A stretch of DNA of 63,940 nt, counting the filler, from Folioceros fuciformis (taxonomy: Eukaryota), in the NCBI GenBank assembly GCA_049999805.1. It is 11 parts of 11 records of this genome, joined end to end, with 100 filler letters (N's around TTAATTAATTAA, not from the genome) between each part and the next. Parts side by side here need not be neighbours in the genome. Positions count along the whole stretch, not along the records: positions 11,758 to 32,702 come from JBNGIO010003304.1; 10 more parts are not named here. One strand, given 5' to 3'. The notes under the pieces were generated by a model. That model was not told the origin of the DNA and ran no database searches. It was given only the letters and a program-made list of their open reading frames with translations. Below are positions 14,820 to 51,353 of the stretch, in pieces (the stretch's first letter is position 1; each line of letters starts with the position of its first letter). A program made the position numbers and the translations under genes.

Positions 14820-15187
14820 GCTACAACAGGACGGGGTAACAAGAGATCATGGTTCCCAATCCATAAGAGGAGTGAGAGTACTCCTATGTAACAACAAAAG
14901 CTGCACTGGGGTTGAGAAAATGGTGTGCTGCACAGGTAATGGCACTGTAGGAGGCCATGGATGTGCTCACCAACATGGGCGAACCCTATGCCAACATGTT
15001 GTTTTTCATGATCTCAGGATACACTAACCTTAGGAAACCTTGTAAGGCCATACAATTGTATGATGACATGCATAGGCTAGGAGTGAAGTTAGATGGTCAT
15101 GACTTTATAGCTGCCTTGTAGGCTTCCACATTTGTGGTCAACTTCGAAATGGAAAGAAAAGTTAATTGTGATGTGTTGCAAAATGGC
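14820..15187 (+). pseudogene. Decayed PPR paralog fragment
   Basis: About 14942-15187 reads AL*EAMDVLTNMGEPYANMLFFMISGYTNLRKPCKAIQLYDDMHRLGVKLDGHDFIAAL*ASTFVVNFEMERKVNCDVLQNG, matching LQEAMDVFTRVGKPD...GRKVHCDVLHTG of the 19651 gene. There is a weak PDF-like trace near 14820-14895. Confidence 0.7.
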
Positions 15188-15698
15188 AACTAATGAACCA
15201 TGCATGAGTACAATATCTAGGGGCACAATACAACACTCGCTAATGTTGCCAAACTTGCACTTGTAGTCAAGTTCCTATAAATCATGTTCACCAAGGCTCT
15301 TTATAGCGTGATGTCGAAAGAAGGTCATCACCTAAGAAAGAAAAAGAAACCCATTGGTGTGATTGTAGTAAGCTTTTGTACAAGACTTGATAAGTAGTGA
15401 GAATTCCTTACCCATGGCCCTATCGGCCTCTAGAGCAAGGGAAAAAAAAATGTGATCATCATGTAGAGTGAACCTAAGGGAAATAAAATTGTCAACCTGA
15501 GGGAAATAAAATTGTGATTGTCATGTAGAGTGAACCTTGCTTGTTGCACCTCTCAACCCAAAAATAGCCCCAAAGTATACATCAATAGCCTACAAGTTTA
15601 TTTGTTTTTAGTGAATGTGGAGACTCTATACAAATGCCAAAAGTGTAATACAGGTATAGCCTACATTGAAATATTGATATGAGTAGCTGAGTAGGCCA

Positions 15699-16714: not shown

Positions 16715-19651
16715 TCACGGTCGACCCTTACAACTGCAAGAACCAGCTGCGAATCGATGCACACGATACCCATCCCTTACAACAATGTGTCTCTGTTCAA
16801 GCCTTGACATGATCTCCGTGGAACTGTGACAGTCACTGCACATGCGAAGATTCTTTGTTACTACAAGAGGTGTCCCACTCGGCGTGTTCAACAGACCGAA
16901 CGCCAGAGCCAACTTCTCAGCATGCCCGCAAAGAGCATCTTCCTTTTGCCTCTCAGCAAGTGGCTTCAAAACCAACTTCGTGTGAGGTACGTGGCCTCCT
17001 TCCTGCTTCACACGGGCATTGATGCTCTTTACCTTAAGAGCAACCTCATCTGTCTTTTCTCCTACCACAAATGTATGTACCTGCTCCTTCACCTCAATAC
17101 CTGCCACTGCCGGTTTCTTGTTAGCTCCTGCGGCCTTTCTCTGTTTCTCGATCCTCTCCACATCGCTCCACCTACCTGCATCTGCGTAGGAATTGGCCAT
17201 GAGCACGTACGTGGGAGCCTGACCGGGATCCAATTCAACAAGCGTTTCGAAGCACAGGGTTGCCCTCTCTATATCCCCATGGCTTTTGCAGGCATTGAGC
17301 AAAGACGTCAATCCGACAACATTCTTTTCGCCATCACATGATGACAGCATATTCTCTGCCTCGTCTAAACGGCCTGCACGCCCCAGAAGGTCAACCATGC
17401 AATTGTAATGCTCGATACCAGGTTCGATGCCATGCTGTTCGGCCATGGAATCAAAGAGCTTGCACCCCTCATGCACCAGTCCCCCGTGACTGCATGCTAC
17501 TAAAAGGGAAGTAAAAGTAGCACCATCAGGCACAATCCCAGCCGCTAGCATCTCCTCAAAACAAGCTAGTGCGTTGTGGCCTTCGTCACAAGTGCCATAC
17601 CCAGATATCAGGGCATTCCAGGTCACCGCATCCTTTGAAACAAGGCTGTCAAACACCTGCCTCGCATCTTCGAGTTCGCCACATTTTGCATACATGTCCA
17701 CAAGGCAGGTGCCCACAAGTAAATTACCTAGCAGCTCTCTTTCCACAATCTGTGAGTGCAGCTGCCTGCCCTTCTGTAATGCACCAGCGCTCGCACAGGC
17801 CTTCAGAAGGCAAGCTAATGTGACGTGGTCAGCCACAATCAGGCCCTCCTGTTCCATTCGTCCGTGCACGACAAGCGCCTCTTGGCTGAGCCCTTGATTT
17901 GTATACCCCGTAATCAGGGCAGTCCATGTTTCCACGGTCTTTGAGGCCAAGTTGTCAAAAGCTCCACGAGCACTGTCCATATCGCCACATTTTCCGTACA
18001 TGTCCACCAGACAGGTGCCAATCAGTGGATTATGTAGCAGTCCTTGTTCCACGATCTGTGAGTGCAGCTCCTTGCCCTCCTGTAACGCACCAGTGGCTGC
18101 ACAAGCCTTCAGAAGGCAGGCAAAGGTAACATGGTTAGCCAAAAGCAGGCCCTCTTGCACCATTTGCCCATACAGAACAAGCGCTTCTTTACCAAGCCCT
18201 TGCTGTGTATAACCAGATATGAGGACTGTCCAAATAACCACATCCTTCGTGTCCAAACTGTCAAAAACTCTGCGAGCATCTTCCAGTTCGCCACATTTTG
18301 CATACATGTCCACCAGGCAGGTTCCAACCAGTAAATTATCCCGCAGTCCTCTTCCTACAATCTGCGAGTGCAGCTGTTTGCCCCTCTGTAACGCACCAGT
18401 GCTTGCACAGGCCCTCAGAAGACTCGCAAAAGTAACATCGTTAGCCAGATTCAAGCCCTCTTGCTCCATTTGTCCATAAACAACAAGCGCCTCTTCGGAG
18501 AGGCCTTGCTGTGCATATCCAGCAAGTAGGGCTGTCCACGTCACCACATCCTTCGTGACCATGCTGTCAAAAACCCGGCACGCATCCTCCAGTTGGCCAC
18601 ATTTTGCATACATGTCCACCAGGCAGGTGCCAAGAAACAAGTTCAGAGGAATGCCAGTGTGCAGCACATCACAGTGCACTTTTCTACCAGAATCCAAGTC
18701 GGCAGCAACTGCACAAGCCTGAAGGGCAGCGGAAAAGACATGGGCATCCGCCTTCACACCAGACCTGCGCATCTCATGGTACAGTTGTATGGCCTCGGCT
18801 GGTTTCCCACCTTTAACATGCGCGGAGATAATGGAAACCCACAAGAAGGCATCTGGTTTGCCAACCCTGGTGAAAACATCCATGGCCTCCTGAAGCCTGC
18901 CTGCACCCGCATACAAGCGCACGAGATGGTTTCCTAAGTATGCATTTGTGTGGTATCCAAGTTTGATGATGAGGTCATGAAGTCGTTGCCCCAGAACTAA
19001 GTCCTTGTTAGCTGTGCACATTTTCAGGACAGTATAAAAGAGAGAGTGAGGCATACTACAGCCCGTGTGCGCCATGGATTCCAGGGCTCCCACGGCCTCA
19101 GCAAGCTTCCCTTGCTGACATAAGGCGCGCACGGTTACAGCCGACACTTGGCCCGATTCTGATCCTGCATACCTGCAAGGCTCAGGCTTATCCCACGAGC
19201 TCGACTTGCAACATGGAGAGGCAGCATGAGCCATGTGCATATCCAAGGAAAGCAGCTGCTCATCCACCCATGCTGGCTTGAAAACATTGTTTAACCAGAG
19301 GACCTCGCCGCCGGACCCCTTACGCCGGAAGTCAGGCCAATGCGAGCTCTTTTTATGTCGCCTGTTATCCCACCACATGCCAGGGTCCAGGAAAAATTCC
19401 TGCCATAACATCTCCTGCTGCTGGTGCCGACCATCGATAGACAATCCTTTCACACCCACACCCATTCTCGAAAGTGGAAGTGGAAGTGGAAGTAATGGAT
19501 TGTTTAAACTGCTGCACCTGTATACGGAGGGGTGGTTTATTCCCGCCCCTTGACTCCATGAGGTGAGATGAGCGGGAGTTCTCCCTAGAATTCCTGTACG
19601 CTGAGCAGTTTCCTGGGTCCACAACGAATCTGGTTGCCATAGTGTGGCCAT
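16715..19651 (-). CDS. PLS-class PPR protein, PDF motif + 18 PPRs + E1/E2 + DYW:KP (GRP-type) domain; candidate U-to-C RNA editing factor (978 aa)
   Basis: The intronless ORF-track start at 19663 is TTG; the first ATG is 19651 (MATLWQPD, homologous to the paralog starts). P-L-S triplets, P2-L2-S2, E1, E2, then KKPAVAGIEV...CGHAEKLALAFGLL...RMCSDCH...CSCKGRP*. N-terminal LWQEFF..WWDNR..PDFRRK..LWL..PAWV at 19253-19408. Confidence 0.93.
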   Translation of the reverse strand: MATLWQPDSLWTQETAQRTGILGRTPAHLTSWSQGAGINHPSVYRCSSLNNPLLPLPLPLSRMGVGVKGLSIDGRHQQQEMLWQEFFLDPGMWWDNRRHKKSSHWPDFRRKGSGGEVLWLNNVFKPAWVDEQLLSLDMHMAHAASPCCKSSSWDKPEPCRYAGSESGQVSAVTVRALCQQGKLAEAVGALESMAHTGCSMPHSLFYTVLKMCTANKDLVLGQRLHDLIIKLGYHTNAYLGNHLVRLYAGAGRLQEAMDVFTRVGKPDAFLWVSIISAHVKGGKPAEAIQLYHEMRRSGVKADAHVFSAALQACAVAADLDSGRKVHCDVLHTGIPLNLFLGTCLVDMYAKCGQLEDACRVFDSMVTKDVVTWTALLAGYAQQGLSEEALVVYGQMEQEGLNLANDVTFASLLRACASTGALQRGKQLHSQIVGRGLRDNLLVGTCLVDMYAKCGELEDARRVFDSLDTKDVVIWTVLISGYTQQGLGKEALVLYGQMVQEGLLLANHVTFACLLKACAATGALQEGKELHSQIVEQGLLHNPLIGTCLVDMYGKCGDMDSARGAFDNLASKTVETWTALITGYTNQGLSQEALVVHGRMEQEGLIVADHVTLACLLKACASAGALQKGRQLHSQIVERELLGNLLVGTCLVDMYAKCGELEDARQVFDSLVSKDAVTWNALISGYGTCDEGHNALACFEEMLAAGIVPDGATFTSLLVACSHGGLVHEGCKLFDSMAEQHGIEPGIEHYNCMVDLLGRAGRLDEAENMLSSCDGEKNVVGLTSLLNACKSHGDIERATLCFETLVELDPGQAPTYVLMANSYADAGRWSDVERIEKQRKAAGANKKPAVAGIEVKEQVHTFVVGEKTDEVALKVKSINARVKQEGGHVPHTKLVLKPLAERQKEDALCGHAEKLALAFGLLNTPSGTPLVVTKNLRMCSDCHSSTEIMSRLEQRHIVVRDGYRVHRFAAGSCSCKGRP

Positions 19652-20054
19652 ATTACCAAGCAAAGCACCACTCTGGGAACACGAGACTGGGGAGGTTGAG
19701 GCAGGATTTCATGTGAATGGCTGGCATCAACCAGGGGGCATGAGCTCTTCTGCATCATGCACTCCTCCCCTTCCAAAACACAGACACTTGCAAGGCAGCC
19801 ATGGAACTACCTCTTATCGGTAACGTGACTCGGGAGCTGGTAGCCATGAGGAAGACCCTGTTGCGGGAATTAGGGGGCCGGGCCAGCCTTTCCAGCTAAA
19901 TCGTGAATGACATACAATACTACACAGTATGTACTTATTTTACCCTCACCTCACTGGAGCATTTCATGACCAACGAACGAGACGCTAAGGGGGCAACGCT
20001 ACCGAGATGCGCATCCTTCATGACCCAACGAACCGGCTGCTAACTGTATCATGG

Positions 20055-20355
20055 CAGCATGGGCACAGAGGATGTGGTGGGACGGAATGCCCTGCCCTGA
20101 TATCTTTGTATGCCCAGCGATAAGCACCCGGCCCGAACGTCCTTTCTCTGTTATTCGGAGACATGGAGAGAGACAAGTCTCACGTGTTTTCTTTATGCTC
20201 GGCTTCTCAAGGGGTGGTGGAAGCAGTGGTGCCTTACAGGCGGGCAGCTCGCTGAGGACTTGGGGAAGCCTGCTGGAGACCTTTCTGGTGGGAATCTGCG
20301 TGGACATGTCTGCCTCCAAAAGTGGTGATCTGAATGAAAGAAGATGCACGCTGGA
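20055..20355 (+). pseudogene. Decayed PPR (P-L-S) fragment between two intact genes
   Basis: Reads TEDVV..NAL, then RLLK..GSSGALQAG...LLETFLVGICVDM..KSGDL..DAR across frames, resembling the central PLS triplet. It is on the opposite strand to both neighbours. Confidence 0.55.
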
Positions 20356-20649
20356 CTTTTTTTTTTTTAACCAAGGCCACAAAGAACATGGTTACGTGAT
20401 CACATAGAGAAACGAAGTTTGCTAGAAATGCGCACCAAGGCCTCTGGTAGACGCGCTTGTTGTGTGTGAGCGCACATGGAGGGGCGAAAGGCCAAATTGT
20501 AGTTGAATTTGTTCAAGCACTTTTTCCAACGAAGTAACCACTGACTCCTGCACCTTTTACCTCCCACCCCCAACCCCACCCCAAAGAAAGAAAGGGCCTC
20601 AGCTTCCCCCCTTCAAATTTGAGAGCACATTGCTTCCCAATCTTAGTGT

Positions 20650-23600
20650 TCACGGTCTGCCTTTACAACTGCAACTGCCGGCTGCAAATCGATGCACACG
20701 GTACCCATCTCTCACAACAATGTCCCTCTGTTCCAGCCTTGACATGATCTGCGTGGAACTATGACAGTCACTGCACATGCGCAGATTCTTTGTTACCACC
20801 AGAGGTGTCCCATTCGGAGTGTTCAACAGACCAAACGCCAGAGCTAGCTTCTCAGCATGCCCGCAAAGGGCATCTTCCTTCTCCTTCTCGGACAGTGGCT
20901 TCAACACCAGCTTCGTGTCAGGTACGTGACCTCCTTCCTCCTTCAGACGTGCATTCGTGCTCTCTACCTTCAACGCAATATCATCTCTTCTTTGTCCCAC
21001 AGCAAATGTATGTACCTGCTCCTTCACCTCGATGGTCGCCACTGCAGGTTTCTTGTTAGCCCCTGCTGCAAGTCTCTGAGTTTCAACCCTGTCTACGTCG
21101 GCCCACATGCCTGCGTCTGCGTAGGCATTGGCCATAAGCACGTACGCAGGCGCCCATTGAGGGTCAAGCCTGACAATGCTTTCAAAACACCGGATAGCCC
21201 TCCTTATATCCCCATGACTTTTGCAGGCATTCAACAAAGACGTCAAGCCTACTACATTCCGTTGGCCCTCACACGACAATAGCATCCTCTCTGCCTCACC
21301 TAGACGGCCTGCACGCCCAAGTAGATCAATCATGCAATTGTAATGCTCAGTTGTGGGGCTGATGCCATACTGTTCAGCCATACAACCAAGGAGCTTGCGG
21401 CCTTCATCCACCAGCCCCTCATGACTGCACGCTACCAGAAGGCACGTAAAAGTAGCCTCATTAGGCTGAATGCCAGCGACTAACATCTCATCAAAACACG
21501 CGAGTGCCTTCTGACCTTCATCACAAGTACCATACCCAGATATCAGGGCGGTCCAAGTCACCACATCCTTCGTGGCCAAGCTGTCAAAGACCCGGCGTGC
21601 GCCTTCTAGACTGCCACACTTTGCATACATATCCACAAGGCAGTTGCCCAACACCACGTTGTCCAGAAGTCCTCTTTCAACAATCAGTGAGTGCAGCTGC
21701 CTGCCCTTCTGTAAAGCACCGCTGCTTGCACACGCCTTAACAAGGCAAGCAAATGTCACATCGTCCGCCACGACCAGGCCCTCCTGCTCTAATTGTCCAT
21801 ATAGAGCAAGCGCCTCTTGTCCCAGCCCTTGCTCAGTATACCCCGCAATCAGGGCATTCCATGTCACCACGTTCTTTGTGCCCATGCTTTCAAAAAGCTG
21901 GCGTGCATCTTCAAATTCACCAAATTTTGCATACCCAGATATCAGCGCAGTCCATGTCACCACATCCTTTTTGTTCATGCTGTCAAAAACCTGGCGTGCG
22001 TCTTCCAGTTCACCACATTTTGCATACATGTCTACTAAGCAGTTGCCTAACACTAGGTCATCCAGCAGTTCTCTTCCAACAATCTGCGAGTGCAGCTGCC
22101 TGCCCTTTTGTAAGGCGCCAGTGCTTCCACATGCGTTCAGAAGGCAAGAAAAAGTCATACCGTCAGCTAAAATGAGGCCCGCCTCCTCCATTTGTCCATG
22201 CACATCCAGAGCCTCCTGGCCCCGTCCTTGCTGTGAGTACCCAGCGATCAGAGCCGTCCACGTCACTACGTTCTTCGTGCCCAAGCGGTCAAAAACCTGG
22301 CGGGCATCCTCCAGCTCACCACATTTTGCATACATGTCGACCAAGCAGGTGCCCACCACTACGTTATCCAGCAGTCCCCTTTCGACGACCAGTGAATGCA
22401 GCTGCCTGCCCTTCTGTAAGGCACCAGTGCTTGCACACGCCGTCAGGAGGCAAGCAAAAGTGACATGATTCGCCAAAAGCAGCCCCTGGCGCTCCATTTG
22501 TCCATACAAAACGAGTGCCTCATGTCCAAGCCCTTGCTGGGAATACCCACATATCAGAGCATTCCATGTAATCACATCCTTCGTGGCCATGCTGTCGAAA
22601 ACCTGGCGTGCATCTTTCATTTCACCACACTTCGCATACATGTCCACCAGGCGGTTGCCCAACACTACATCATCCATTAGTCCTCTTTCCACAATCTGTG
22701 AGTGCAATTGCCTGCCCTTCTGTAAGGCGCCGGTGCTTGAACAGGCCTTCAGAAGGCAAGCAAAAGTAGCCCGGTCAGCCAAAACCAGCCCTTCCCGCTC
22801 CATTTGTTCATACACAACAAGTGCTTCATGTCTGGGCCCTTGGTCGGCAGTCCCAGAGATCAAGGCATTCCGTTTCACCACATCCGGCGTAGCAATACTG
22901 TCCAAATCCTGACGTGCATCTTTCAGTTCACGACAATTTGCATACCCAGCAATCAGAGCATTCCATGTCACCAGGTCCTTTGAGGCCATGTGGTCGAAAA
23001 CCTGGCGTGCATCTTGTAGTTGGCCACATCTTGCATACATATCCACCAGGCAGGTGCCCACCACTACGTTATCCAGCAGCCCTCTTTCGACAATCAGTGA
23101 GTGAAGCTGTCTGCCTTTGTGCAAGGCACCAATACTTCCACAGGCCTTCAGAAGGCAAGCAAAAGTAACATGGTCCGCCAGAACCAGCTCCCCCTGCTCC
23201 ATCTTTCCATACGTAACAAGTGCCTCGTGTCCGAGCCCTTGCTGGGCATACCCGGATATCAGGGCATTCCATGTAACTACATCCTTTGTGGTCATGCTGT
23301 CAAACACCTGGCGTGCGTCTTTCAGTTCGCCACATTTGGCATACATGTCCACCAAGCAGTTGCCAACGAACAAGTTGGTAGGAATGCCGCTGTTTAAAAC
23401 ATCACGGTGCACTCTCCTGCCAGATTCCAAGTCAGCAGCAAAAGCACAGGCTTGAAGGGCAGCTACATAGACGTGAGCATCCGCCTTCACGCCTGACCTA
23501 CACATGATATTGTATAGTCGTAAGGCCTCCTTGGGTTTCCCATGCTTGGCGTATGCAGAGATTATGGAAAACCAGACGAAGGCATCTGGTTTCCCCACCC

Positions 23601-24369
23601 TGGTGAACGCATCCATGGCCTCCTGCAGCCTACCTCCACGTGCATACATGCGCAAGATATGGTTTCCCATGTGTGCATTGGAATCGTAACCAAGCTTCGC
23701 AGTGAGATGGTGAACTCGTCGGCCCATAGCAAAATCCTTCTTAGCTGTACACAGTTTCAACACCGCATAAAACAGAGACGAAGGAAGTGCAGAGTCTGTC
23801 TGTGCCGCAAGAGATTCCAGGGCTCCAATGGCCTCAGAAAGCTTCCCCTGCTGACAAAACATGGTGACGGTCTCAGCCGTGAGGACACCCATTCCGGATC
23901 TTGCACGCTTTCCAGGTTCAGGCTTAAGCAAAGAGGCGGACGCTGAAGGCGTGGCAGCATGACCACCCATCTGCATATCCAAGGAAACGAGCTGCTCATC
24001 CACCCAAGCTGGCTTGGACCTGTCGTTCAGCCACAGGACCTCGCCGGACCCCTTACGCCGAAAGTCGGGCGAACGGGAGCTCCTCTTCTCTCGTCTGTTG
24101 TCCCACCACATGGTAGGCTCCAGAAAAAATTGTTGCCATAAGTGCTCCTGCTTCTGGCAACGAGCATCTGTTGACAAGGCGTCCCCACCCGAACATTTTG
24201 TGGGAAGTGGAAGTGCAAGTGCTGTGCTCCTTACGCTACTGCACCTGGAGGCTCTGCTTGCCAGAGGTTCACTCCCTAAGACATGGTGAGCGGCAGCTCC
24301 CGCTAGAATCGCAGTACATACACCAATTTGTTGAGTCCACTGCGGGTCCGGTTGCCATACCGTAGCCAT
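20650..24369 (-). CDS. PLS-class PPR protein, PDF motif + 26 PPRs + E1/E2 + DYW:KP (GRP-type) domain (1239 aa)
   Basis: The ORF-track start at 24492 is GTG; the first ATG is 24369 (MATVWQPD). Five central PLS triplets plus two SS motifs; KKPAVATIEV, HAEKLA, CSDCH, CSCKGRP*. PDF motif at 23989-24141. Confidence 0.93.
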   Translation of the reverse strand: MATVWQPDPQWTQQIGVCTAILAGAAAHHVLGSEPLASRASRCSSVRSTALALPLPTKCSGGDALSTDARCQKQEHLWQQFFLEPTMWWDNRREKRSSRSPDFRRKGSGEVLWLNDRSKPAWVDEQLVSLDMQMGGHAATPSASASLLKPEPGKRARSGMGVLTAETVTMFCQQGKLSEAIGALESLAAQTDSALPSSLFYAVLKLCTAKKDFAMGRRVHHLTAKLGYDSNAHMGNHILRMYARGGRLQEAMDAFTRVGKPDAFVWFSIISAYAKHGKPKEALRLYNIMCRSGVKADAHVYVAALQACAFAADLESGRRVHRDVLNSGIPTNLFVGNCLVDMYAKCGELKDARQVFDSMTTKDVVTWNALISGYAQQGLGHEALVTYGKMEQGELVLADHVTFACLLKACGSIGALHKGRQLHSLIVERGLLDNVVVGTCLVDMYARCGQLQDARQVFDHMASKDLVTWNALIAGYANCRELKDARQDLDSIATPDVVKRNALISGTADQGPRHEALVVYEQMEREGLVLADRATFACLLKACSSTGALQKGRQLHSQIVERGLMDDVVLGNRLVDMYAKCGEMKDARQVFDSMATKDVITWNALICGYSQQGLGHEALVLYGQMERQGLLLANHVTFACLLTACASTGALQKGRQLHSLVVERGLLDNVVVGTCLVDMYAKCGELEDARQVFDRLGTKNVVTWTALIAGYSQQGRGQEALDVHGQMEEAGLILADGMTFSCLLNACGSTGALQKGRQLHSQIVGRELLDDLVLGNCLVDMYAKCGELEDARQVFDSMNKKDVVTWTALISGYAKFGEFEDARQLFESMGTKNVVTWNALIAGYTEQGLGQEALALYGQLEQEGLVVADDVTFACLVKACASSGALQKGRQLHSLIVERGLLDNVVLGNCLVDMYAKCGSLEGARRVFDSLATKDVVTWTALISGYGTCDEGQKALACFDEMLVAGIQPNEATFTCLLVACSHEGLVDEGRKLLGCMAEQYGISPTTEHYNCMIDLLGRAGRLGEAERMLLSCEGQRNVVGLTSLLNACKSHGDIRRAIRCFESIVRLDPQWAPAYVLMANAYADAGMWADVDRVETQRLAAGANKKPAVATIEVKEQVHTFAVGQRRDDIALKVESTNARLKEEGGHVPDTKLVLKPLSEKEKEDALCGHAEKLALAFGLLNTPNGTPLVVTKNLRMCSDCHSSTQIMSRLEQRDIVVRDGYRVHRFAAGSCSCKGRP

Positions 24370-24789
24370 CGTCCAAGTTCCGTTATCGGAAGATGAGTCT
24401 AACGTCCACCAATGCAGGATGGCATAGTCAGGAAGTGAGGCATTTCGGCAAGGGACACGGCCAACGGCCACGGCCACAGCCGGACGATCCACACACTTAG
24501 ACGAACATCTCTTTATGTTTTTTCATTGCCATCGTGAACGATGCAGCGTGTCCCAAAGTGAAGTCTAAACTTCTCGATGTTGAAACAAGTCCATCTTTGG
24601 GGTCCGTGTCCGCGCGGGGTAGAGACGATGTCCGTGGCACGCCTGACCAGCGGGTGTTTGCGGTTATGTCCTTCACCGCCACTGCCTTCTGGTCAGGGCT
24701 CAACAACAATTGGTCCAGCGCTGGATCCCTCGTAGCCTCTCGACTGGCTCTGCCTTTTACGGCTGGAGCTTGCTCTTTCCGCCGTGACA

Positions 24790-27324
24790 CATGCACACAC
24801 ACAGGGATTCTATTACCAGCAGCTCCCGCCCAACGCATCTCAGGGACTCAAGCCCTGGCAAACAGAGCCTCCGGCTGTGGCAGTGTAAGGACTCGGAGCC
24901 TGAACTTCCACTTCCGAGATCGCGCGTGGGTAGGGACGACCTTTCCAGCGATGCCGGCCGTTGCCAGGGACAGCAGCTGCAGGAGCAGGAGAACTTGTGG
25001 CAACAGTTTCTTCTTCACCCTACTCTTTGTTGGGAAGACAGACGAGATAAGAAGAGCTCCCGTCTCCCTGACTTTCGGAGTAATGTGTCCGCCGAGGGGC
25101 TGTGGTTGAACGTGTTGAAGTCAGATTTGGTTGATGAGAAGCTGGCTTCCCTGGATATGCACAGGAGTCGCGGCGCCTCTCCTTTCAACTCCAACTCTCG
25201 AGATAATCCTGAACCTGGGAATCTCTCAGAACGGGAAATGGGTTCCTGGTCCAGCATTGTAAGGAGCCCAGCACTTCCACGTACCAGAAAATGTCTGAGT
25301 GGGGACGGGACTTCCACCCATGCTCGACGCCAGGAGCTGCAGGAGCAGGAACACTTCTGGCAACAATTCTTTGGGAGCCTGTCACGTGGGTGGGACAACA
25401 GATGAAGTACAGTAAGAAGAGCTCCAGTTCGCCTGACGTCCGGCGTTAGGGTTCCGGTGAGGTCCTGTGGTTACGCAACACGTTCAAGCCAGCTTGGGTT
25501 GATGACCAGCTCATGTCCATGGATATGCACGTGGTGCATGCCTCCCCCCTTCCAATTCCACGCGTCTGTGTAAGCCTCCTGAACCCCAGAGGCGCGCAGG
25601 ATCGGCAATCGGCATCCGTTCTTCTGTCACCCTGACCAAGTTGTGTCAGCAGGGCAATCTCTTCGAGGCCGTTGGTGCCCTGGAATCTCTGGCGCGCATG
25701 GACTCAGCGTTTAATCTGTCCCTGGTTTGCACTGGGATCAAACTGTGTACAGCTAAGAAGGATTTGGTTGCTGGTCGACGGGTTCATCATCACACTGTTA
25801 AACCTGGCTACGAGACGAATGCGTTCTTGGCCAGCCATTTCTTGCGCATGTATGTATGCATGTGGAGGCAGCCTAGAGGAGGCCGTTGATGTGTTCAGCA
25901 GGGTGCGGGAACCGGATGCCTACATGTGGTCTTCCATAATCTCTGCACACCCAAAGCATGGGAAACCCAATGAGGCAGTACAATTGTACTATGATATCCC
26001 TGGCTCAGCAGTGAAGGCAGATGCATATGTCTTCATGGCCGCCCTTCAAGCTTGTGCACTGGCTGCCGACTTGGTAGTTGGCAGAACAGTGCATCGCGAT
26101 GCGTTGCACAGTGGCATTCCGACTGACTTATTTGTGGACGACTGCCGGGTGGACATGTATGCAAAATGTGGCAAAATGAAAGACGCACGCCAGGTTTTTG
26201 ACAGCATGGCCATATAGGACGTGGTCACATGCAATGCCCTCATATCTGGGTATGCAAAATTGGAAGATGCGCACAAGGTTTTTGACAGCTTGAACACAAA
26301 GGATGTGGTGACCTGGAACGCCTTGATAGCTGGATATGCACAGCAAGGACTCGTACCTGAGGCTTCTTTTGTAAACGGACGAATGGAGTAAGATGGCCAG
26401 GTTTTGGCTGGCCGTGCTACTTTTTGGCTGCCTTCTCAAGGCCTGTGCCAGCACGGGAGCTTTGCAAAAGGGCAGGCAACTGCACTCACAGATTGTGGAA
26501 AGAGGACTGCTGGAGGACGTGGTTGTGGGCACCTGCCTTGTAGACGTATGCGAAATGGGGTGAACTGGAAGATGCACGCCAGGTTTTTGACAGCATGAAC
26601 TCAAAAAATGTTGGGACATGGACCGTTCTGATAGCTGACTATGGCACTTGTGATGAAGGTGTCAAGGCACTGGCTTGTTTTGAGAAGATGTTAGTTGCGG
26701 GTGTTCAGCCAAACGAAGCTACTTTCACTTGTCTCCTAGTGGCATGCAGTCACGCATGACTAGTCGAGGAGGGTCGCAAGCACTTCGATTCCATGTTCGA
26801 ACAGTATGACATCAAACCTACTATTGAGCAGTATACCTGCATGATAGATCTTCTCGGGCGTGCGGGCCATTTAGATGAGGCAGAGAAGATACTATCATCA
26901 TTTGAATGCAAAAGTCATGTTGTGGGCTTGATGACCTTGTTGAATGCCTGCAAAATTTATGGGGACCTAAAAAGAGCTGTTCGGTGTTTTGAAAGCCTTG
27001 TTAGGCTGGAACCGTTGCTGGCGCCCGCCTATGTGCTCATGGCCAGTGCCTATGCAGATGCAGGTCAGTGGAGCGATGTAGTCAGGATTGAAGCATTGAG
27101 AATGGTAGCAGGAGCTAATAAGAAACCTGCAGTGGCGACCATAGAGGTGAATATGGCGGTACACAGATTTCTGGTGGGAGAAAAGAGAGGATATTCCATT
27201 TAAGGTCGACAGCACGAATGCAAATGTGAAGCTGGGAGTAGGCCATGTACCTCACACGAAGTTGGTGTTGAAGCCAGTGTGTGAGAAGGAAAAGGAAGAT
27301 GTGCTCTGTGGGCATGCAGAGAAA
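24790..27324 (+). pseudogene. PPR-DYW:KP pseudogene, tandem paralog of the 28095 gene, with a duplicated PDF motif
   Basis: ORF pieces 24534/24791/25641/25672/26793/27226 align in order to the 28095 protein, broken by frameshifts and stops (e.g. TAG at 26215). Homology ends right after CGHAEK at 27324. The 5' boundary is approximate. Confidence 0.88.
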
Positions 27325-28094
27325 CCAATGGAAGCACGTGGAGCGAGTTCCAATATGGATGCCGATCGAATTGCCCCAGGTATGGATTCAAGCGCTTTGA
27401 AGTACTGAACTGCCAGAAACGTTGAGGTCAGGGTGAAACGTTCGGGGCCTGAATGGTACGGACGAATGGACGGGGCTCATTTTCAGTCACATCTGACGCG
27501 CCTGCCTTCACATTCGGCCAGCTCATCTCATGTCAGCCCCTGCTCCCTACAGCTGCCATCACAGCAGCACTGCATCGCTGATGTTTGCTGTGCTTGCTCA
27601 GAGGTCTGAGGGGGGGAGGTCTGGATTCAGTTTGGCAAAGCTAGAGGAACGTGATCCAGTCGGACTGAGTGACCAGCTCGATTAGTGACCAAGTTGATGC
27701 AGTCTCGGGGCCTCATTGTCGCAGCCCTCAGCCGCCTGTGCACGATGTGCCCGATGCCCACCTACTTCTCCATCAGCCGCGGATCGCGATGGGGCCGAAT
27801 CGGGCGATATGAGCCGGCCACAAGTGATTTGATGGAGCGAAGGTGGTTCACTCTTGCCCTCATCTCGGCTGGCCATGCAGCCCTGTATTTGGTGGCGCCC
27901 GCCCTGTGTCACCTGCACCTGCCCTATCGTGGAGGATGTCGGACTGCCCTCAACCAGCGCCATCTTCGAATTGGGAGGGCCTTCGGTAGTCCAATCCGCA
28001 CAGCGGCCGAGGGAACCTTGTACCTGTTATACGCCGTTGCTCCTGTGATGTGGTGGAACTGTGCATCCTGCCATACCCAGCTGATTCCGGCGCC

Positions 28095-30536
28095 ATGGTC
28101 ACAGTATGGCAACGGGACCCGTCGTGGACCACCCAACAAAATGCGCTCGGCGTTTGTACTCGTATCCCACTAGAACCTCCCGCTCGCTTCTTCATCTTGG
28201 GGAGTCGACCTCCCTTGGCAAACAAAGCCTCCAAGTGCAGCAGTGTCGAGTGTTGGAACCCAGAACTTTCTCTTCCGAGGAAATGTGTGGGTCGGGACGC
28301 CTTTCCAAGCAGGGATGGCTGTCGCCGGGAGCAGCAACAGGAGCAGGAGCAGGAGCAGGAGCAGTTGTGGCAACATCTTTTTCTGGAGCCTAGCATGTGG
28401 TGGGACAACAGACGAGTTAAGAGGAGCTCCTGTTCGCCGGACTTCCGACGTAAGAGGTCTGGCGAGGTATTGTGGTTGAACAACATGTTCAAGCCAGCTT
28501 GGGTGGACGAACGGCTCGTTTCCTTGGATATGCACGTGGGTGATCATGCTGCCTCGCCTTCAGCGTCCACCTCTTTGCATAAGCCTGAACCTGGAAAGCG
28601 TGCAAGGACGGGAGTGGGTGTGCTCACCGCTGGAACTGTCACCATGTTCTGCCAGCAGGGAAAGCTTTCTGAGGCCGTCGGATCCCTGGAATCACTGGCG
28701 GATACTGACTCTGCCATTTCTCAGTCCCTGCTGTACACTGTGCTCAAATTGTGCACAGCTAAGAAGGATATGGTCATGGGGCGTCGAGTTCATGTTCTCA
28801 TTGCCAAACTTGGATACGATTCCAGCTCATTCTTGGGGAACCATATCGTGCGCATGTATGCCAGTGGAGGTAGGCTGCAGGAGGCCATTCATGTGTTCAA
28901 CAGGGTGGAGAAACCAGATGCCTTCATGTGGTCTTCCATAATCTCAGCACACTCAAAACATGGGAAGCCTAAGGCAGCCATACGACTGTACCACGAGATG
29001 CGTTGGTCAGGAGTGCAGCCAGATGCCCACGTCTTTGTAGCTGCCCTTCAAGCTTGTGCATTTGCCGTTGACTTGGAATCTGGCAGAGCAGTGCACTCTG
29101 ATGTGGTGCATAGTGGCATTGCTGCAAACTTGTTTGTAGGCAACTGCCTGGTGGACATGTATGCAAAATGTGGCAACATGGAAGATGCACGCCAGGTTTT
29201 TGACAGCATGAACACGAAGGATGTGGTGACATGGAATGCCCTGATAGCTGGCTATGCCAAATGTGGTGACCTGAAAGATGCACGGCAGGTTTTTGACAGC
29301 ATGAAGACAAAGAACGTGGTGACGTGGAACACCTTGATAGCTGGGTATGCGCAACAAGGCCTTGGCCAAGAGGCGCTTCTTCTGTATGGACGAATGGAGC
29401 AGGAGGGCCTCATTCTGCCTGACCATTTTACGTTTGGTTGCCTTCTGAACGCCTGTGCGAGCACTGGTGCTTTGCAGAAGGGCAGACAGCTGCACTCTCA
29501 GATTGTGGAAAGAGGGCTCTTGGAGGACGTAGTCGTGGGCACCTGCCTGGTGGACATGTATGCAAAATGTGGTGAACTAGAAGATGCACGCCAGGTTTTC
29601 GATGGCATGAACACCAAGAATGTGGTGACATGGACCACCCTGATTGGTGGGTATGGTACGTGTGATGAAGGTCGCAAGGCACTGGCTTGTTTCGAGGAGA
29701 TGTTAGTTGCTGGCGTTCAGCCAGACGAGGCGACTTTTTGTCGCCTTTTAGTGGCTTGCAGTCATGAGGGACTGGTGGAGGAGGGGCGCAAGCACTTTCA
29801 TTCCATGGCTGAAGAGCATGGCATCAAACCCACTGTCGAGCATTACACCTGCATGATCGACCTTCTTGGGCGTGCTGGCCATTTAGATGAGGCAAATGCG
29901 ATTCTGTCATCCTTTTTGGGCGATAGGGATGTTGTGGGCTTGACTTCCTTGTTGAGTGCGTGCAAAAGCCATGGCGATCTAGAGAGGGCGATTTGGTGTT
30001 TTGAGAACATTGTGAGGCTGGACCCGCAGAGGGCGCCCGCCTATGTGCTCATGGCCAGTGCCTATGCAGATGCAGGTAGATGGAGCGATGTAGACAGGAT
30101 CGAAAGACAGAGAACGGAGGCAGGAGCGAACAAGAAAGCTGCAATGGCAACCATTGAGGTGAATAATAAGGTCCACAGTTTCCTGGTGGGAGAGAGGAGA
30201 GAGGATATTGCAATGAAGGTGAAGAGCACGAATGCACGTTTGAAGCAGGAAGGGGGCCATGTACCTCACACGAAGCTCGTGCTGAAGCCAGTGTGTGAGA
30301 AGGAAAAGGAAGATGCCCTTTGCGGGCATGCTGAGAAGCTAGCCCTAGCGTTTGGTCTGTTGAACACTCCGAGTGGGACACCTCTGGTGGTGACCAAGAA
30401 TCTACGCATGTGCAGCGACTGCCACGGTTCCACGCAGATCATGTCAAGGCTGGAACAGAGACACATTGTTGTGAGGGATGGATTTAGGGTGCATCGATTC
30501 GCAGCTGGTTGTTGCAGTTGCAAAGGGCGACCGTGA
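28095..30536 (+). CDS. PLS-class PPR protein, PDF motif + 13 PPRs + E1/E2 + DYW:KP-like (GRP-type) domain (813 aa)
   Basis: The ORF-track start at 28050 is GTG; the first ATG is 28095 (MVTVWQRD). KKAAMATIEV, HAEKLA, CSDCH, CSCKGRP*. PDF motif at 28365-28517. Confidence 0.93.
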   Translation: MVTVWQRDPSWTTQQNALGVCTRIPLEPPARFFILGSRPPLANKASKCSSVECWNPELSLPRKCVGRDAFPSRDGCRREQQQEQEQEQEQLWQHLFLEPSMWWDNRRVKRSSCSPDFRRKRSGEVLWLNNMFKPAWVDERLVSLDMHVGDHAASPSASTSLHKPEPGKRARTGVGVLTAGTVTMFCQQGKLSEAVGSLESLADTDSAISQSLLYTVLKLCTAKKDMVMGRRVHVLIAKLGYDSSSFLGNHIVRMYASGGRLQEAIHVFNRVEKPDAFMWSSIISAHSKHGKPKAAIRLYHEMRWSGVQPDAHVFVAALQACAFAVDLESGRAVHSDVVHSGIAANLFVGNCLVDMYAKCGNMEDARQVFDSMNTKDVVTWNALIAGYAKCGDLKDARQVFDSMKTKNVVTWNTLIAGYAQQGLGQEALLLYGRMEQEGLILPDHFTFGCLLNACASTGALQKGRQLHSQIVERGLLEDVVVGTCLVDMYAKCGELEDARQVFDGMNTKNVVTWTTLIGGYGTCDEGRKALACFEEMLVAGVQPDEATFCRLLVACSHEGLVEEGRKHFHSMAEEHGIKPTVEHYTCMIDLLGRAGHLDEANAILSSFLGDRDVVGLTSLLSACKSHGDLERAIWCFENIVRLDPQRAPAYVLMASAYADAGRWSDVDRIERQRTEAGANKKAAMATIEVNNKVHSFLVGERREDIAMKVKSTNARLKQEGGHVPHTKLVLKPVCEKEKEDALCGHAEKLALAFGLLNTPSGTPLVVTKNLRMCSDCHGSTQIMSRLEQRHIVVRDGFRVHRFAAGCCSCKGRP

Positions 30537-36759: not shown

Positions 36760-39364
36760 ACACTGGCCCGAAATTCTATGTTCCACATACCAGAGTACCT
36801 CAACCATGATTTTCAGTCCTTCTGTTAGGAGAAAGGAATCATCCACCAACTTACTGTGCCATACCACCCTGCACAAAACTCTTTCGCAAAACGTTACAAC
36901 TGCACGTTACAGGAAAGATGCAGGGCTACACTCTCATTGGCAAGCCTGACTAGAGGACACTGGGCCGAACCTATTGCAGTTGTAAACTATGTTCATAACA
37001 AACTGCCAACAAAGCCCTTATTTGATCACACACCTTTTGAGAGATGGCATACTTCTAAACCTCAAATCAGCCATCTTTGTATTTTCGGTTTTGCAGCATA
37101 TGCTTTATGTACCTGCTGACAAGAGAGGAAAGATGGATAATTAGGCAACCAAGCACATTATTGTCGGCTATTCTGACACTTCCAAAGGTTATAGGCTCTA
37201 CAACCCTTACACTAAGCAACGTACCTTGGCCCGTGGTGTTAGGTTCAATGAGAGTTTTATTCTGAATGCACATCTCTAGTCCTCCACTAGCCATGACCCT
37301 CTTCCACAACCTTCCTTGTATTGCAACCTTCCATTAGATCAGTCCATTGATAATACAAATGTTTTCGATACTGATATGGTTGAATTCTTACCTGATCTTA
37401 CAACCCAAACCACACCAGTAGCAGCTGTCCCCATTCCAGCACCTATCAATGATAAGTTGTTAGATGCGCCTAAACAGCATAATTTAGTGGATGAATTAGA
37501 CCAACCTCACAATATTTTAGTGGACGATTTAGACCAACCTGCAGACTTACCAGATCCACCTGCTGACGTACCATTAGAGGCTCCAGCTGTGACACCTTTG
37601 AGAAGATCAGCCATGTCACATCGCCCTCATGAAGAGTGGCTTAATCCACCTTATTCACCTGGTAATACTTTTACCTATCAATTACAGCCAGATCATGTAG
37701 CACAACCTCGTGCGAGTTTCTCAGCTTTTGCTTATGCAACAACATCTTCTGTCCTAGATCCCCCTGACACACCACTCACCTATCAAGAGGCATTGTCTGG
37801 TCCTCAAAAGGCAAAATGGCAGAAAGCTATTGATTCAGAATATAACAGTCTTATATCAAACAAGACATGGGAGATGGTAACCTTACCACTAGATCAAAAA
37901 CTCATCACATCCAAATGGGTTTTCAAATTGAAGCTCCATCCAAAACGGTCAGTAGCCCGCTATAAGGCCAGGTTGGTGGCGAGGGGCTACACTCAGGTCC
38001 ATGGTCTGGATTACATAGAGACCTTTAGCCTAGTTGTAAAGCCAACATCTGTGCGTATGTTACTCTGCTATGCTGTCAAACATAAGTTAATTGTCCATCA
38101 AATGGACGTGAAGACCGCATTTTTCAATGGAGATCTTACTGAGGTGATTTTTATGAACCAGCTTGAGGGCTATATTGTTGATCACACCAAGGTATGTAGA
38201 CTCATGAAATCCCTGTATGGATTAAAACAGTCAGCACGCCTATGGAATTCACGTGCTGATAAGAAACTACGCAAGCTGGGTTTTGTACCTCTAGCTGCTG
38301 ATTGCAGCGTCTATGTCCTCAAGAAGACCAATCAGATATGCATCATTGCTTTGTATGTTGATGATAATTTCATCTTCGCAAGTGACGACCAGATCCTGAC
38401 CTACATCAAGCGAGAACTCTCCCAGGAGTGGGACATGACTGATGTTGGACCTTTAAAGTTTGCACTTGGAATTCAGTTTGCTTTTGATATGGGCTGGACT
38501 TGTGTATGTATTCATCTATCACATTTTATACGTCAGCTTCTCACTAAATTGAATCTGTTGGATGTAAACCCAGTCTCTACTCTAGTTTCCACTAGTGACA
38601 AGCTATCTATTGAGGACAGCCCAAATACTGATAATGAATGAGCTATACCTTACAGAGAGGCAGTTGGGAGCCTTTTATATTTAGTTGGCTGGACTCGTCC
38701 AGATATTTCCCAAGCTGTCGGTATAGTCTCACGCTTCCTCAACAACCCTAGACAAAAGCATTGGGTCGCTGTGAAATGTATCCTTCGTTATTTCAAAAGG
38801 GACCCAACACATATATCTGCAGTATTCACAACATGGAAGCAGTATTCTTATCTCGTTTTCTGATGCTGACTGGGCAGGGGACATTGATTCTCGAAGTCCA
38901 TAGCAGCTTATTGTGTCATGCTGCAAGGTTCAGCAATCAGTTGGCAATCAAAAAGGTAATCCACTGTCAGTCTCTCCTCAACCGAGGCAGAGTATGGTGC
39001 CCTTTCACTTGCTGCCCGTGAGATCACTTGGGTCAGACAATTTCTTGATGGTATTCACTGGGAGCAACCTGGAGCAACCCTGTTGCAGTGCAACAACCAG
39101 TCAGCTATCGTGCTAACAGCCAACCCCATCTTGCACACGCGATCAAAGCATATTGAAATTCAATTTCATTTTATCCGTCAAGCAGTGGAAATGGGAATCA
39201 CACAGCTCCAATATGTTCACACCTCAACCAACATTGCTGACATTCTTACTAAGAGACTCCCTAAGATGTCACATGATCAGCATAGATGCTCCCTTTGGCT
39301 TAATGATTCCACCAACACTTATCTTAAAGCAGCGAGTCGGGCTCCTCCTCTGGATTCAGCTTGA
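36760..39364 (+). mobile_element. Degenerate copia INT-RT-RNase H
   Basis: PYHPAQN..A.R.N; ORF 37316-38641 with YKARLVARGY, QMDVKTAF, YGLKQS and YVDD; HTRSKHIE. Confidence 0.92.
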
Positions 39365-40323: not shown

Positions 40324-42763
40324 GCCACACACCTTAATACAATATGCAGATATGGACCTACGTGAGTCCTTATCACCAGCCCAATCAGAGTCCGTCTTGC
40401 ACTCCATCCAGGTCCTTCCATCAGCCCCTTTCTTGCTATACAAAAGTCCTAGGTCAGATGTGCCTTTCAAGTACCTAAGGACACGCTTAGCGGCTATCCA
40501 ATGCTGCTGTCCAGGGTTAGCTAAGAATTGTGAGGCAATTGATGTTGCATGGGCAATATCTAGTCTGGTCCAGCCACTCAGCCATAGCAGACACCCTACA
40601 AGAACTCTGTATGGTATATTCTCCATCTCCTTCTGCTCAGCAATTGTCTTGGGACATTGATCTTGTGTCAAGGTAGCCCCCACTGCAGCTGGAGTTGCTG
40701 CTGGCTTCGCATTTTGCATGTTGAACTTCTCAAGTAATCTGTTCACATAATGCTGCTAGTGGAGAAATATGCTTCCCGTCACTGGGTTCATGAATGCTTG
40801 GACACCTAGGAAGAATTTGCAAGGGCCCAAATTTGTCATTTTGAATTCCGATGACAGGATGCCTTTTACCTCTTTTATCATGCCATCATCGGATCCAAAA
40901 ATGATTGTGTCATCAACGTACACCGCTAGGTAGGCAGTCTGCCCTTGCTTCTTGTATACATAGACACTGCCATCAGCATCTGATTGCTTAAACCCTCTCC
41001 TTACAAGGTATGTGTGCAACCTCAAGTTCCACCCACGATTTGATTGTTTGAGGCCATACTGGGTTTTCTTCAGCCTACAAACCTTGCTTGGGTGCTTGGC
41101 ATCAATATAGCCTTCAGGCTGCATCATGTATACCTCTTCTTCAAGGAGGCCATTAAGGAAAGCTGTTTGTACATCCATCTGGTGGATGTGGTAACCTTCG
41201 TGAGCAGCAACAGCCATGAGTGTCCTTAATGATGACGCACGTACAACAGGAGAGAAAGTCTCATTGTAGTCTATCCCTTCTCTTTGTGAGAATCCACACA
41301 CCACTAGTCTAGCTTTGAACCTAGTTGTGCTGCCATCAGGGTTGAGTTTCCTCTTGAACACCCATTTGTTTGAAATCGGCCTCCTTCCTTGGGGTAAATC
41401 AACTAATTCCCAAGTCTCGTTCTCAATGAGGGAATCAAATTCTGATTTGATCGCTGCTTGCCATTGCTCCTTCTCCGGTGAGTTTATGGCTTCTTTGTAG
41501 GATGTTGGTTCACCTAGGTCTTGGGCTGCTATGAGTATTTGAGCCAACATGGCATTCATATTTGCATTCGGCCGTATGTGCCCTTCCATGGCAAGCGGCA
41601 CTTGACTCCATTCCAGGGGAGAGCTTGTATGGTGTCTCGCTGACCTCCTAGGCATAGCAGGCTGACCAGGTTCAAACTGTGTTGGCACATTGGTTTCAGC
41701 TTCACCCTCACTTGCATGGGCCGCAAATGTGTCACCAGGATCAATGTCAACTTGTGGTAGTGGGTTGAGGCCTGGAGCTGAGGTAAGGCTTGGGGCTTGT
41801 GGTGGAGTTACTTGTGGCTGACTTGTACGTGGGATGGTTTGCTCAAGTTCAGAATCACTATCGCTTTGGAGTTCAGTAGCTAGAGGGTCAGACATTACAT
41901 CCTGTGGGCCCCCCTCTCTAGCACAAGCTGCAACCAACAAACTGTTCTCATAAAAAATGCCAACACGGGTATGAGTAACATGGCCAGAACTAGGGTCATA
42001 AACCTTATACCCTTTGATACCCTCAGTGTATCCAATGAAGGTCATAGTACGGGCTTGATAATCCAGCTTCCTCCGTTGGGTCTTGGGGATGTGCATGTAC
42101 ACACGGCTGCCAAAAATTTTCAGATGTGAAATGGATGGCTTACGACCAGTCCACCGCTCATATGGGGTAGCACCTATGAAGGAAGAAGTGGGCAAACGGT
42201 TTTGCAGATATGTGGCAGTTTGTACTGCATCAGCCCAAAATGGCTTGGATAAACCGGACTGATAAAGCATAGCCTTGGCTGCTTCTTGGAGGTATCTGTT
42301 CTTTGCCTCTGCCAATGGATTTTGGCTGGATGTGTGTGGGGAGGTCAGCTGGCGGGCAATGCCAAGAGAACGACAATATGACTAGAAATCACCACTAATA
42401 AATTCGCCCCCATTATCAGTCCTGAGCACTTTGAGAATTTTCCCAGTTTGTCGTTGAGAGAAGTCAACATACTGTTGAAACTTCTGTAAGGCCTCATTCT
42501 TCTGCCGCAAGAAGTATGTAACAGTGTATCTACTGTAATCATCAATGACAGCCATGAAGTAAAGGGAACCACCAAGTGATGGTGTTGACATCGGTCCACA
42601 GAGATCCGTATGGACCATTTCCAATAAGTCAGATGCACGGTCATGTTCACTCTTCTTAGGCTTCTTCTTGACCATCTTACTGTGGATGCAAGCGCCACAT
42701 AATACATGTGTGTCAGTAACCTTCCAGTCAAGTTTCTCACGGTACAACTCCTGCTCTGTCATC
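40324..42763 (-). mobile_element. Copia INT-RT region, whole contig
   Basis: VHTDLCGP, IDDYSR, RTDNGGEF, FKARLV, QMDVQTAFLNG, YVDD and DSDWAGD, with a few disruptions. Confidence 0.93.
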
Positions 42764-49118: not shown

Positions 49119-49218
49119 NNNNNNNNNNNNNNNNNNNNNNNNNNNNNNNNNNNNNNNNNNNNTTAATTAATTAANNNNNNNNNNNNNNNNNNNNNNNNNN
49201 NNNNNNNNNNNNNNNNNN

Positions 49219-51267: not shown

Positions 51268-51353
51268 TGTGGAGGCAAAACCCCGGGCACTGATTGCCGA
51301 CGGATTCCACCTTTAGTGGCCACACTTATCCCACTGTCGTTGAGACATTGGGT
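51268..51353. mobile_element. LTR terminus inserted at the gypsy RT active-site codons
   Basis: TGTGGAGGCAAAACC... is the reverse complement of 56610-56695 (ending ...GCCTCCACA). The junction lies immediately before FCVFG, which normally follows the xxDD motif. Confidence 0.75.

Follow-up and report, generated by a model that had tools for sequence, protein, structure and literature searches.

The PDF motif, a stretch of about 50 amino acids named for its conserved Pro, Asp and Phe, is known from the plant organellar OSB proteins, in which it lies C-terminal to an SSB-like domain and is held responsible for the binding of single-stranded DNA (ssDNA) (PMC6963530, PMC4166229). According to the same two reviews the PDF motif of AtOSB1 is sufficient on its own for ssDNA binding, and AtOSB1 and AtOSB2 are reported to prefer ssDNA over double-stranded DNA or RNA (PMC4166229). 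A second, separately described system is formed by the DYW:KP proteins of hornworts, which are pentatricopeptide repeat (PPR) proteins and putative factors of U-to-C editing, and whose GRP subgroup is recognized by a PLS-type PPR array followed by an E motif and a DYW deaminase with a characteristic set of signatures (PMC9478123). Here we describe genes in which elements of both systems are combined. They lie in a stretch of 63,940 nucleotides from Folioceros fuciformis (assembly GCA_049999805.1), made of 11 parts of 11 records joined end to end with filler, which we refer to as the window and along which all positions are counted; the part that holds the genes is from record JBNGIO010003304.1. 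A reading made from the DNA sequence alone (the sequence-only reading) had proposed that every DYW:KP editing factor carries an OSB-type PDF motif at its N-terminus, and our analysis follows up that proposal.

PDF motifs in three PPR-DYW:KP genes

Between 16.7 and 30.5 kb the window contains a cluster of one gene family, consisting of three intact PPR-DYW genes and one pseudogene. The intact genes, which we call g1 (16715-19651, minus strand, 978 amino acids), g2 (20650-24369, minus strand, 1239 amino acids) and g3 (28095-30536, plus strand, 813 amino acids), are intronless, each being a single open reading frame (ORF) from its first ATG, which is within a conserved M[AV]T[LV]WQ start. Matches to Pfam families were obtained in all three products for PPR repeats, for E_motif, with E values from 1e-9 to 4e-16, and for DYW_deaminase, with E values from 3e-33 to 4e-31, in the order of PLS-type PPR array, E motif and DYW deaminase that characterizes the GRP subgroup. 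The translations of their C-terminal parts contain KKPAVA..IEV, CGHAEK, CSDCH and a terminal CSCKGRP, that is, a KPA box replaces the PG box, HAE replaces HSE and a C-terminal GRP replaces DYW. By the signature criteria taken from PMC9478123, g1, g2 and g3 are members of the GRP subgroup of hornwort DYW:KP proteins and, as such, putative U-to-C factors. A search of the window found no DYW domains beyond those of the genes and pseudogene of this cluster.

Each of the three proteins has a motif of about 60 amino acids, preceded by a disordered leader and followed by the PPR array. The sequence-only reading had placed its core at 19253-19408, 23989-24141 and 28365-28517, and these intervals do encode it, on the minus, minus and plus strands respectively, strands which that reading had not given. 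As we delimit it, the motif spans 19238-19423 in g1, 23974-24156 in g2 and 28350-28532 in g3. A six-frame scan of the window with an OSB-derived PDF profile found exactly three full copies (58-71 bits), namely those of g1 (58.0 bits), g2 (71.2 bits) and g3 (65.6 bits). Pfam had no match over the N-terminal 170 residues of the three proteins and does not cover the motif.

The relationship of this motif to that of the OSB proteins was found in both directions. A profile of the three copies, searched with hmmsearch against 1.84 billion representative proteins, matched 722 proteins at E<=1e-3, of which 217 reached E<=1e-10 and 26 reached E<=1e-30, and we followed up the best 150 of the 722. Among these, 79 have the layout of OSB proteins, in which at least 120 residues are followed by one to five motif copies toward the C-terminus, and 55 contain the Pfam SSB domain (49 of the 79 with OSB architecture, best E 2.6e-24, and 6 of 62 others). 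The consensus of the OSB-architecture proteins, W..L..NP..WWDNR..K.....PDFKHK..GEALWL....P.WV...L, repeats the motif. A reciprocal profile, for which we used only the 79 OSB-architecture proteins with their 162 motif instances, scored 75.5 bits with the g2 protein, 70.7 bits with g3 and 62.7 bits with g1, in each case over model positions 2-61 of 62, which amounts to a significant match. In an alignment of 34 proteins that includes the window copies, the P, D and F, two W, an R and a K are invariant, and all three window copies have the roughly 50 residues and the conserved Pro-Asp-Phe by which the PDF motif is defined. Our identification of the matches as OSB proteins rests on their architecture, SSB domain and the motif definition rather than on the names given to them at source. 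Judged by this homology, the motif of g1-g3 is a true OSB-type PDF motif, as had been claimed. The genes themselves are not OSB genes, since their products have no Pfam match to SSB or an oligonucleotide/oligosaccharide-binding (OB) fold at E<=1 and a disordered leader precedes the motif.

The motif has also been kept by selection. The g1 and g3 copies share 74-76% identity with that of g2, and 45 of 66 positions are invariant among the three. Nei-Gojobori estimates for the three paralogues gave a ratio of nonsynonymous to synonymous substitutions (dN/dS) of 0.10-0.20 for the motif at dS 0.45-1.36, as against 0.17-0.20 for the C-terminal 330 amino acids, 0.26-0.31 for the first PPRs, 0.34-0.67 for the leader and 0.44-0.62 for the linker between the motif and the first PPR. 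The PDF motif of g1-g3 is under purifying selection and better conserved than leader and linker, in agreement with what had been read from the sequence, and a dN/dS so close to that of the C-terminal part indicates that it is translated and as constrained as the catalytic end. The leader, which in g1 is about 76 amino acids long (19424-19651, minus strand), is poorly conserved and transit-peptide-like with a net charge of +2, and the linker, which in g3 occupies 28533-28634 (plus strand), is partly predicted to be flexible. The multi-part protein that had been proposed is thus borne out for g1-g3 by ORF, Pfam and profile evidence, with a leader, a PDF motif, a PLS-type PPR array, and an E motif with a DYW:KP domain.

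Some smaller observations concern the same regions. The g1 motif has one extra Gly codon at about 19306, which is missing in some contigs of related organisms, and in g3 a short Gln/Glu-rich run occurs immediately ahead of the motif, in the region 28325-28372. Contigs accumulate on the motif regions in sequencing runs of two related organisms, and 35-41 of them per run diverge at 23965. This divergence just downstream of the motif is a weak hint, consistent with many paralogues that have the motif but not the linker in common.

Structure prediction suggests that the motif folds by itself. We modeled residues 66-140 of g2 with AlphaFold2 from a 34-row alignment and obtained a mean predicted local distance difference test score (pLDDT) of 88.8 and a predicted template modeling score (pTM) of 0.75, with a helix (residues 2-18 of the model), two strands (23-25 and 38-40) and a second helix (57-70) in order. 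A longer model, of residues 1-330 of g3 from an alignment of 22 PDF-PPR rows, has pLDDT values below 50 in the leader (residues 1-70), 93-97 in the PDF motif, 48-51 at about residues 151-170 and above 90 in the PPR helices. Its overall pTM is 0.51, with no confident packing of the PDF motif onto the PPR array; because of this low value and the flexible, low-pLDDT linker, the two modules look independent. The PDF motif is accordingly predicted to be a compact folded module on a flexible tether to the PPR array. A sequence search of the Protein Data Bank (PDB) with the motif returned nothing significant, the best match being the N-terminus of CP29 (E 0.045). The resemblance to this chlorophyll a/b-binding protein extends over 23 residues of the C-terminal half of the g2 motif (about 23989-24060, minus strand) and may be due to chance. 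A search of the ESM Atlas with part of the motif gave no usable match.

Distribution and origin of PPR-linked PDF motifs

Is the motif a property of DYW:KP proteins or of PPR proteins more widely? Pfam detected PPR repeats in 13 of the best 150 motif matches (8 of 10 in one batch and 5 of 62 in another), of which 12 were also recovered by phmmer. A DYW domain is present in only one of these PPR carriers, P0119, whose C-terminus is GRP. The same 150 matches also include a kinesin-motor protein, P0063 (1526 amino acids; Pfam Kinesin E 1.8e-86), with three N-terminal PDF copies, and three proteins of 719-1160 amino acids, P0006, P0007 and P0008, in which 9-12 tandem PDF copies make up nearly the whole protein. 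This extends the known range of the PDF motif from the OSBs to PPR proteins, to one kinesin and to long proteins made of PDF repeats.

For a view from the side of the deaminase we retrieved 120 DYW proteins with the C-terminal 174 residues of g3, which comprise 35 of the HAE type (KP-like), 78 of the HSE type and 7 of neither, and scored the motif at E<=1e-3. The sequence-only reading had the motif fused to every DYW:KP factor. This holds for all three intact genes of the window; beyond it the motif was detected in 3 of the 35 KP-like proteins, a figure which is a lower bound, since each of these proteins comes from one gene call on a short contig and several of the calls are N-terminally short. 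Two of the carriers, P0119 and P0156, have a GRP end, and the third, P0164, has a DRH end. Of four GRP-ending proteins two thus have the motif (in P0119 at 45.8 bits), while P0157 begins at the PPR array, so that its gene call may be short, and P0159 has a leader of 70 amino acids without the motif. Only one of ten DRH-ending proteins carries it, and P0163 holds a remnant (E 0.26). No motif was found in the HSE-type (0/78) or other (0/7) DYW proteins of the sample, the HSE set being a poor control because it consists mostly of seed-plant proteins.

The motif also occurs where there is no deaminase at all. In a sample of 120 fern and lycophyte-type PLS-E PPR proteins, retrieved with P0093 from Adiantum capillus-veneris, 14 have the motif and none of these 14 has a DYW domain; three of them (P0010, P0278 and P0279) have three tandem PDF copies. 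The named carriers are from A. capillus-veneris, A. nelumboides, Ceratopteris richardii and Diphasiastrum complanatum. That all DYW:KP factors, or they alone, have the motif is contradicted by its scarcity among KP-like proteins and by its presence on 14 of 120 DYW-less PLS-E proteins.

Could so scattered a distribution go back to a single event? We built a quick maximum likelihood tree on 63 columns from 33 PPR-linked motif instances and 70 OSB-type instances sampled from 174. One group, with a Shimodaira-Hasegawa-like approximate likelihood ratio (SH-aLRT) support of 81, holds 26 of the 33 PPR-linked instances, among them window, hornwort-type and fern copies. The PPR-linked label requires 6 changes on the tree, compared with 28 when labels are shuffled, and the approximately unbiased (AU) test did not reject a constrained clade of all 33 PPR-linked copies (p=0.91). 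It is possible, as far as motif phylogeny can tell, that the PPR-linked PDF copies derive from one old fusion.

Possible roles of the PDF motif in PPR proteins

A major question arising from these observations is what an OSB-type motif contributes to a PPR protein. We suggest that the products of g1-g3 would be four-part organellar proteins, composed of a disordered, fast-evolving leader that is a probable targeting peptide, a folded PDF domain of about 60-70 amino acids homologous to the ssDNA-binding motif of OSBs, a presumably flexible linker of about 25-40 amino acids, and a PLS-type PPR array that leads into E1/E2 and the GRP-type DYW:KP domain. The PDF module would remain in the mature protein as a sequence-unspecific anchor to single-stranded nucleic acid. 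Most plausibly it would keep the factor, through ssDNA, at nucleoids of the organelle or at sites of transcription, or else it may add a general affinity for single-stranded RNA, and anchoring of either kind could enable the PPR array to find its target more efficiently. To the reading of the PDF motif as a tethered anchor, to single-stranded nucleic acid or to the nucleoid, which aids PPR action in general, we assign from the analyses presented here a probability of about one in two. Because there are PLS-E carriers without a DYW domain, the motif most likely serves PPR targeting and not the chemistry of U-to-C conversion. The same is suggested by the designer GRP-based factors KP2 and KP3, which lack a native N-terminus and perform U-to-C editing at 11-26% (PMC9478123).

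Several points weigh against the anchor as we have described it. Fold searches with the motif model returned no convincing counterpart (Foldseek against PDB, best E 5.5; VIA-align, best Z 4.8), although these searches do not show the PDF fold to be new. The motif was missing from 32 of the 35 KP-like proteins sampled, although several of these are N-terminally truncated gene calls. Editing by KP2 and KP3 also means that the PDF motif is not needed for catalysis. The preference of AtOSB1 and AtOSB2 for ssDNA makes a role as an RNA helper less likely than a tether to DNA or the nucleoid, so that one of the two forms of anchoring is weakened, and the motif may after all be removed together with the presumed targeting peptide.

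If the PDF motif were not an anchor to nucleic acid, it might be an anchor to protein. A protein-protein or oligomerization module that docks the PPR factor to OSB or other nucleoid proteins, or to other editosome components, would agree with a small fold with conserved aromatics for which the fold searches matched no solved nucleic-acid-binding counterpart. Hornworts are, moreover, reported to be without MORF helpers (PMC13386178), and an interface to another partner is conceivable. No such partner is known, however, and reviews assign ssDNA binding to the PDF motif itself, which is sufficient for it in AtOSB1 (PMC6963530). We consider a role in protein interaction unlikely.

It is quite improbable that the motif is part of an import or sorting region and is either cleaved with the presequence or irrelevant to the mature factor. 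Its position directly behind a disordered, weakly basic leader is what such a role would predict, and in some fern proteins it begins only 6-22 residues past the annotated Met. But a sorting region would hardly be expected to be under a constraint equal to that of the catalytic domain or to have a confidently predicted fold, or to occur, as it does on PPR proteins, in up to three tandem copies (P0010, P0278, P0279), and in OSBs the PDF motif belongs to the mature protein and is functional there (PMC4166229).

Is the motif a dedicated helper, acting in cis, of U-to-C editing, or does it even permit the enzyme to act on ssDNA? All window copies are on DYW:KP genes, the named PPR-linked carriers are ferns and a lycophyte while the others resemble hornwort types, and hornworts, lycophytes and ferns are the lineages with U-to-C editing (PMC9478123). 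To this can be added that none of the 78 HSE-type DYW proteins carries the motif, even if these, being mostly from seed plants, are a poor control. Against such specialization stand the 14 fern and lycophyte carriers without a DYW domain, the finding of the motif in only 3 of 35 KP-like proteins, and the ability of KP2 and KP3 to edit without a PDF motif (PMC9478123). We regard a dedicated helper as very improbable. Finally, that an old fusion left the motif as a relic which has no function and drifts neutrally is disfavored and scarcely conceivable, for although it is decayed or a remnant in some relatives (P0119, 45.8 bits; P0163, E 0.26) and in the pseudogene, its dN/dS among the intact paralogues is 0.10-0.20 at dS 0.45-1.36 and the module has been kept across hornwort-type, fern and lycophyte proteins.

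A tethered anchor that aids PPR action would have consequences for how PPR editors are viewed. The usual description has a targeting peptide followed by a PPR array and by C-terminal domains, to which the PDF motif would add a fourth functional part. It would provide a handle on where editing takes place, that is, at the nucleoid and co-transcriptionally versus on free RNA, and on why designer U-to-C editors without native N-termini reach only 11-26% (PMC9478123). While we can only speculate, the PDF-PPR proteins could be an old class of editing factors, tethered to ssDNA or the nucleoid, which predates the split between hornworts and vascular plants and has survived only in the lineages with U-to-C editing (hornworts, lycophytes and ferns). 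In these lineages the PDF motif would assist, as a co-factor, in making co-transcriptional reverse editing efficient, either in cis on DYW:KP proteins or on PLS-E proteins that recruit a DYW:KP domain in trans. We think this extended scenario improbable, but if it were true, designer U-to-C editors, whose efficiency is low, could be improved by the addition of a PDF motif.

The wider locus and comparison with known systems

The pseudogene of the g1-g3 family lies between g2 and g3 (24791-27342, plus strand), as seen from its sequence and from profile and phmmer matches. It has a tandem duplication of the N-terminal module with the PDF motif in it, stops and frameshifts in the PPR array, and a DYW domain that ends shortly past the HAE box. 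The first PDF copy (24983-25159, plus strand) has kept an open frame but is decayed, with a score of 34.1 bits over model positions 3-61, while the second (25343-25527, plus strand) is interrupted by a stop codon and also by a frameshift, and gives two partial matches in frames +1 and +0. Upstream of the cluster there is an isolated short PPR-like fragment (14942-15196, plus strand; 31.9 bits to the g3 array). Retroelement sequence of the Copia and Gypsy types makes up the remainder of the window, and the long ORFs outside the cluster (542-1795, 37316-38641, 40756-42315 and 49167-51323) are genes of long terminal repeat (LTR) retroelements, comprising a Copia gag/pre-integrase, two RVT_2 reverse transcriptases and a Gypsy-type reverse transcriptase (RT)-RNaseH-integrase. 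Some stretches of the window are masked by ten pairs of 44-N runs. One sequencing run (X1) matches the window letter-perfect, intergenic stretches included, and so behaves as DNA of the same organism; it carries no information on transcription of g1-g3.

Full-text literature searches, of partial coverage, found no published PDF-PPR fusion, so that a prior mention is possible. A 2026 survey of the OSB family required an OB fold together with the PDF motif and would exclude PPR carriers for that reason; the part of it available to us does not mention PPR (PMC13393729). A kingdom-wide survey of editing factors, also from 2026, reports RRM-PPR and other fusions and, in its available part, makes no mention of PDF (PMC13386178). 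More generally, surveys based on domains would miss the motif because Pfam has no PDF model.

Set beside the systems with which we began, g1-g3 resemble each in one part. With AtOSB1-4 they share the same motif of about 50-60 amino acids, which aligns end to end with the profile and has the invariant P-D-F, W, R and K, but in OSBs it is C-terminal, behind an SSB-like OB fold and in one to five copies, whereas g1-g3 have a single copy before a PPR array. With the hornwort GRP-type DYW:KP factors (PMC9478123) they have in common the PLS array, E motif, DYW_deaminase, KKPA box, HAE, CSDCH and GRP end; the published descriptions and designs, in the part of that paper available, treat the C-terminal domains and consensus PPRs and mention no N-terminal PDF motif. 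Similar too are the fern and lycophyte PLS-E carriers, such as GOP47_0009037 of Adiantum capillus-veneris, KP509_14G038700 of Ceratopteris richardii and two Diphasiastrum complanatum proteins, annotated at source only as hypothetical or PPR proteins. These have the same succession of short leader, PDF motif, linker and PLS array, and their PDF copies group with those of g1-g3 in the motif tree, but they end after E1/E2 without a DYW domain and some have three tandem PDFs. If an anchoring role is correct, a functional parallel would be found in the ORRM and MORF proteins and RRM-PPR fusions of angiosperms, in which an auxiliary module that binds nucleic acid or PPRs boosts a PLS factor, and of which RRM-P and rare RRM-DYW fusions have been reported (PMC13386178). 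The folds and families involved are unrelated, and ORRM and MORF proteins act mostly in trans, whereas the PDF motif of g1-g3 would act in cis.

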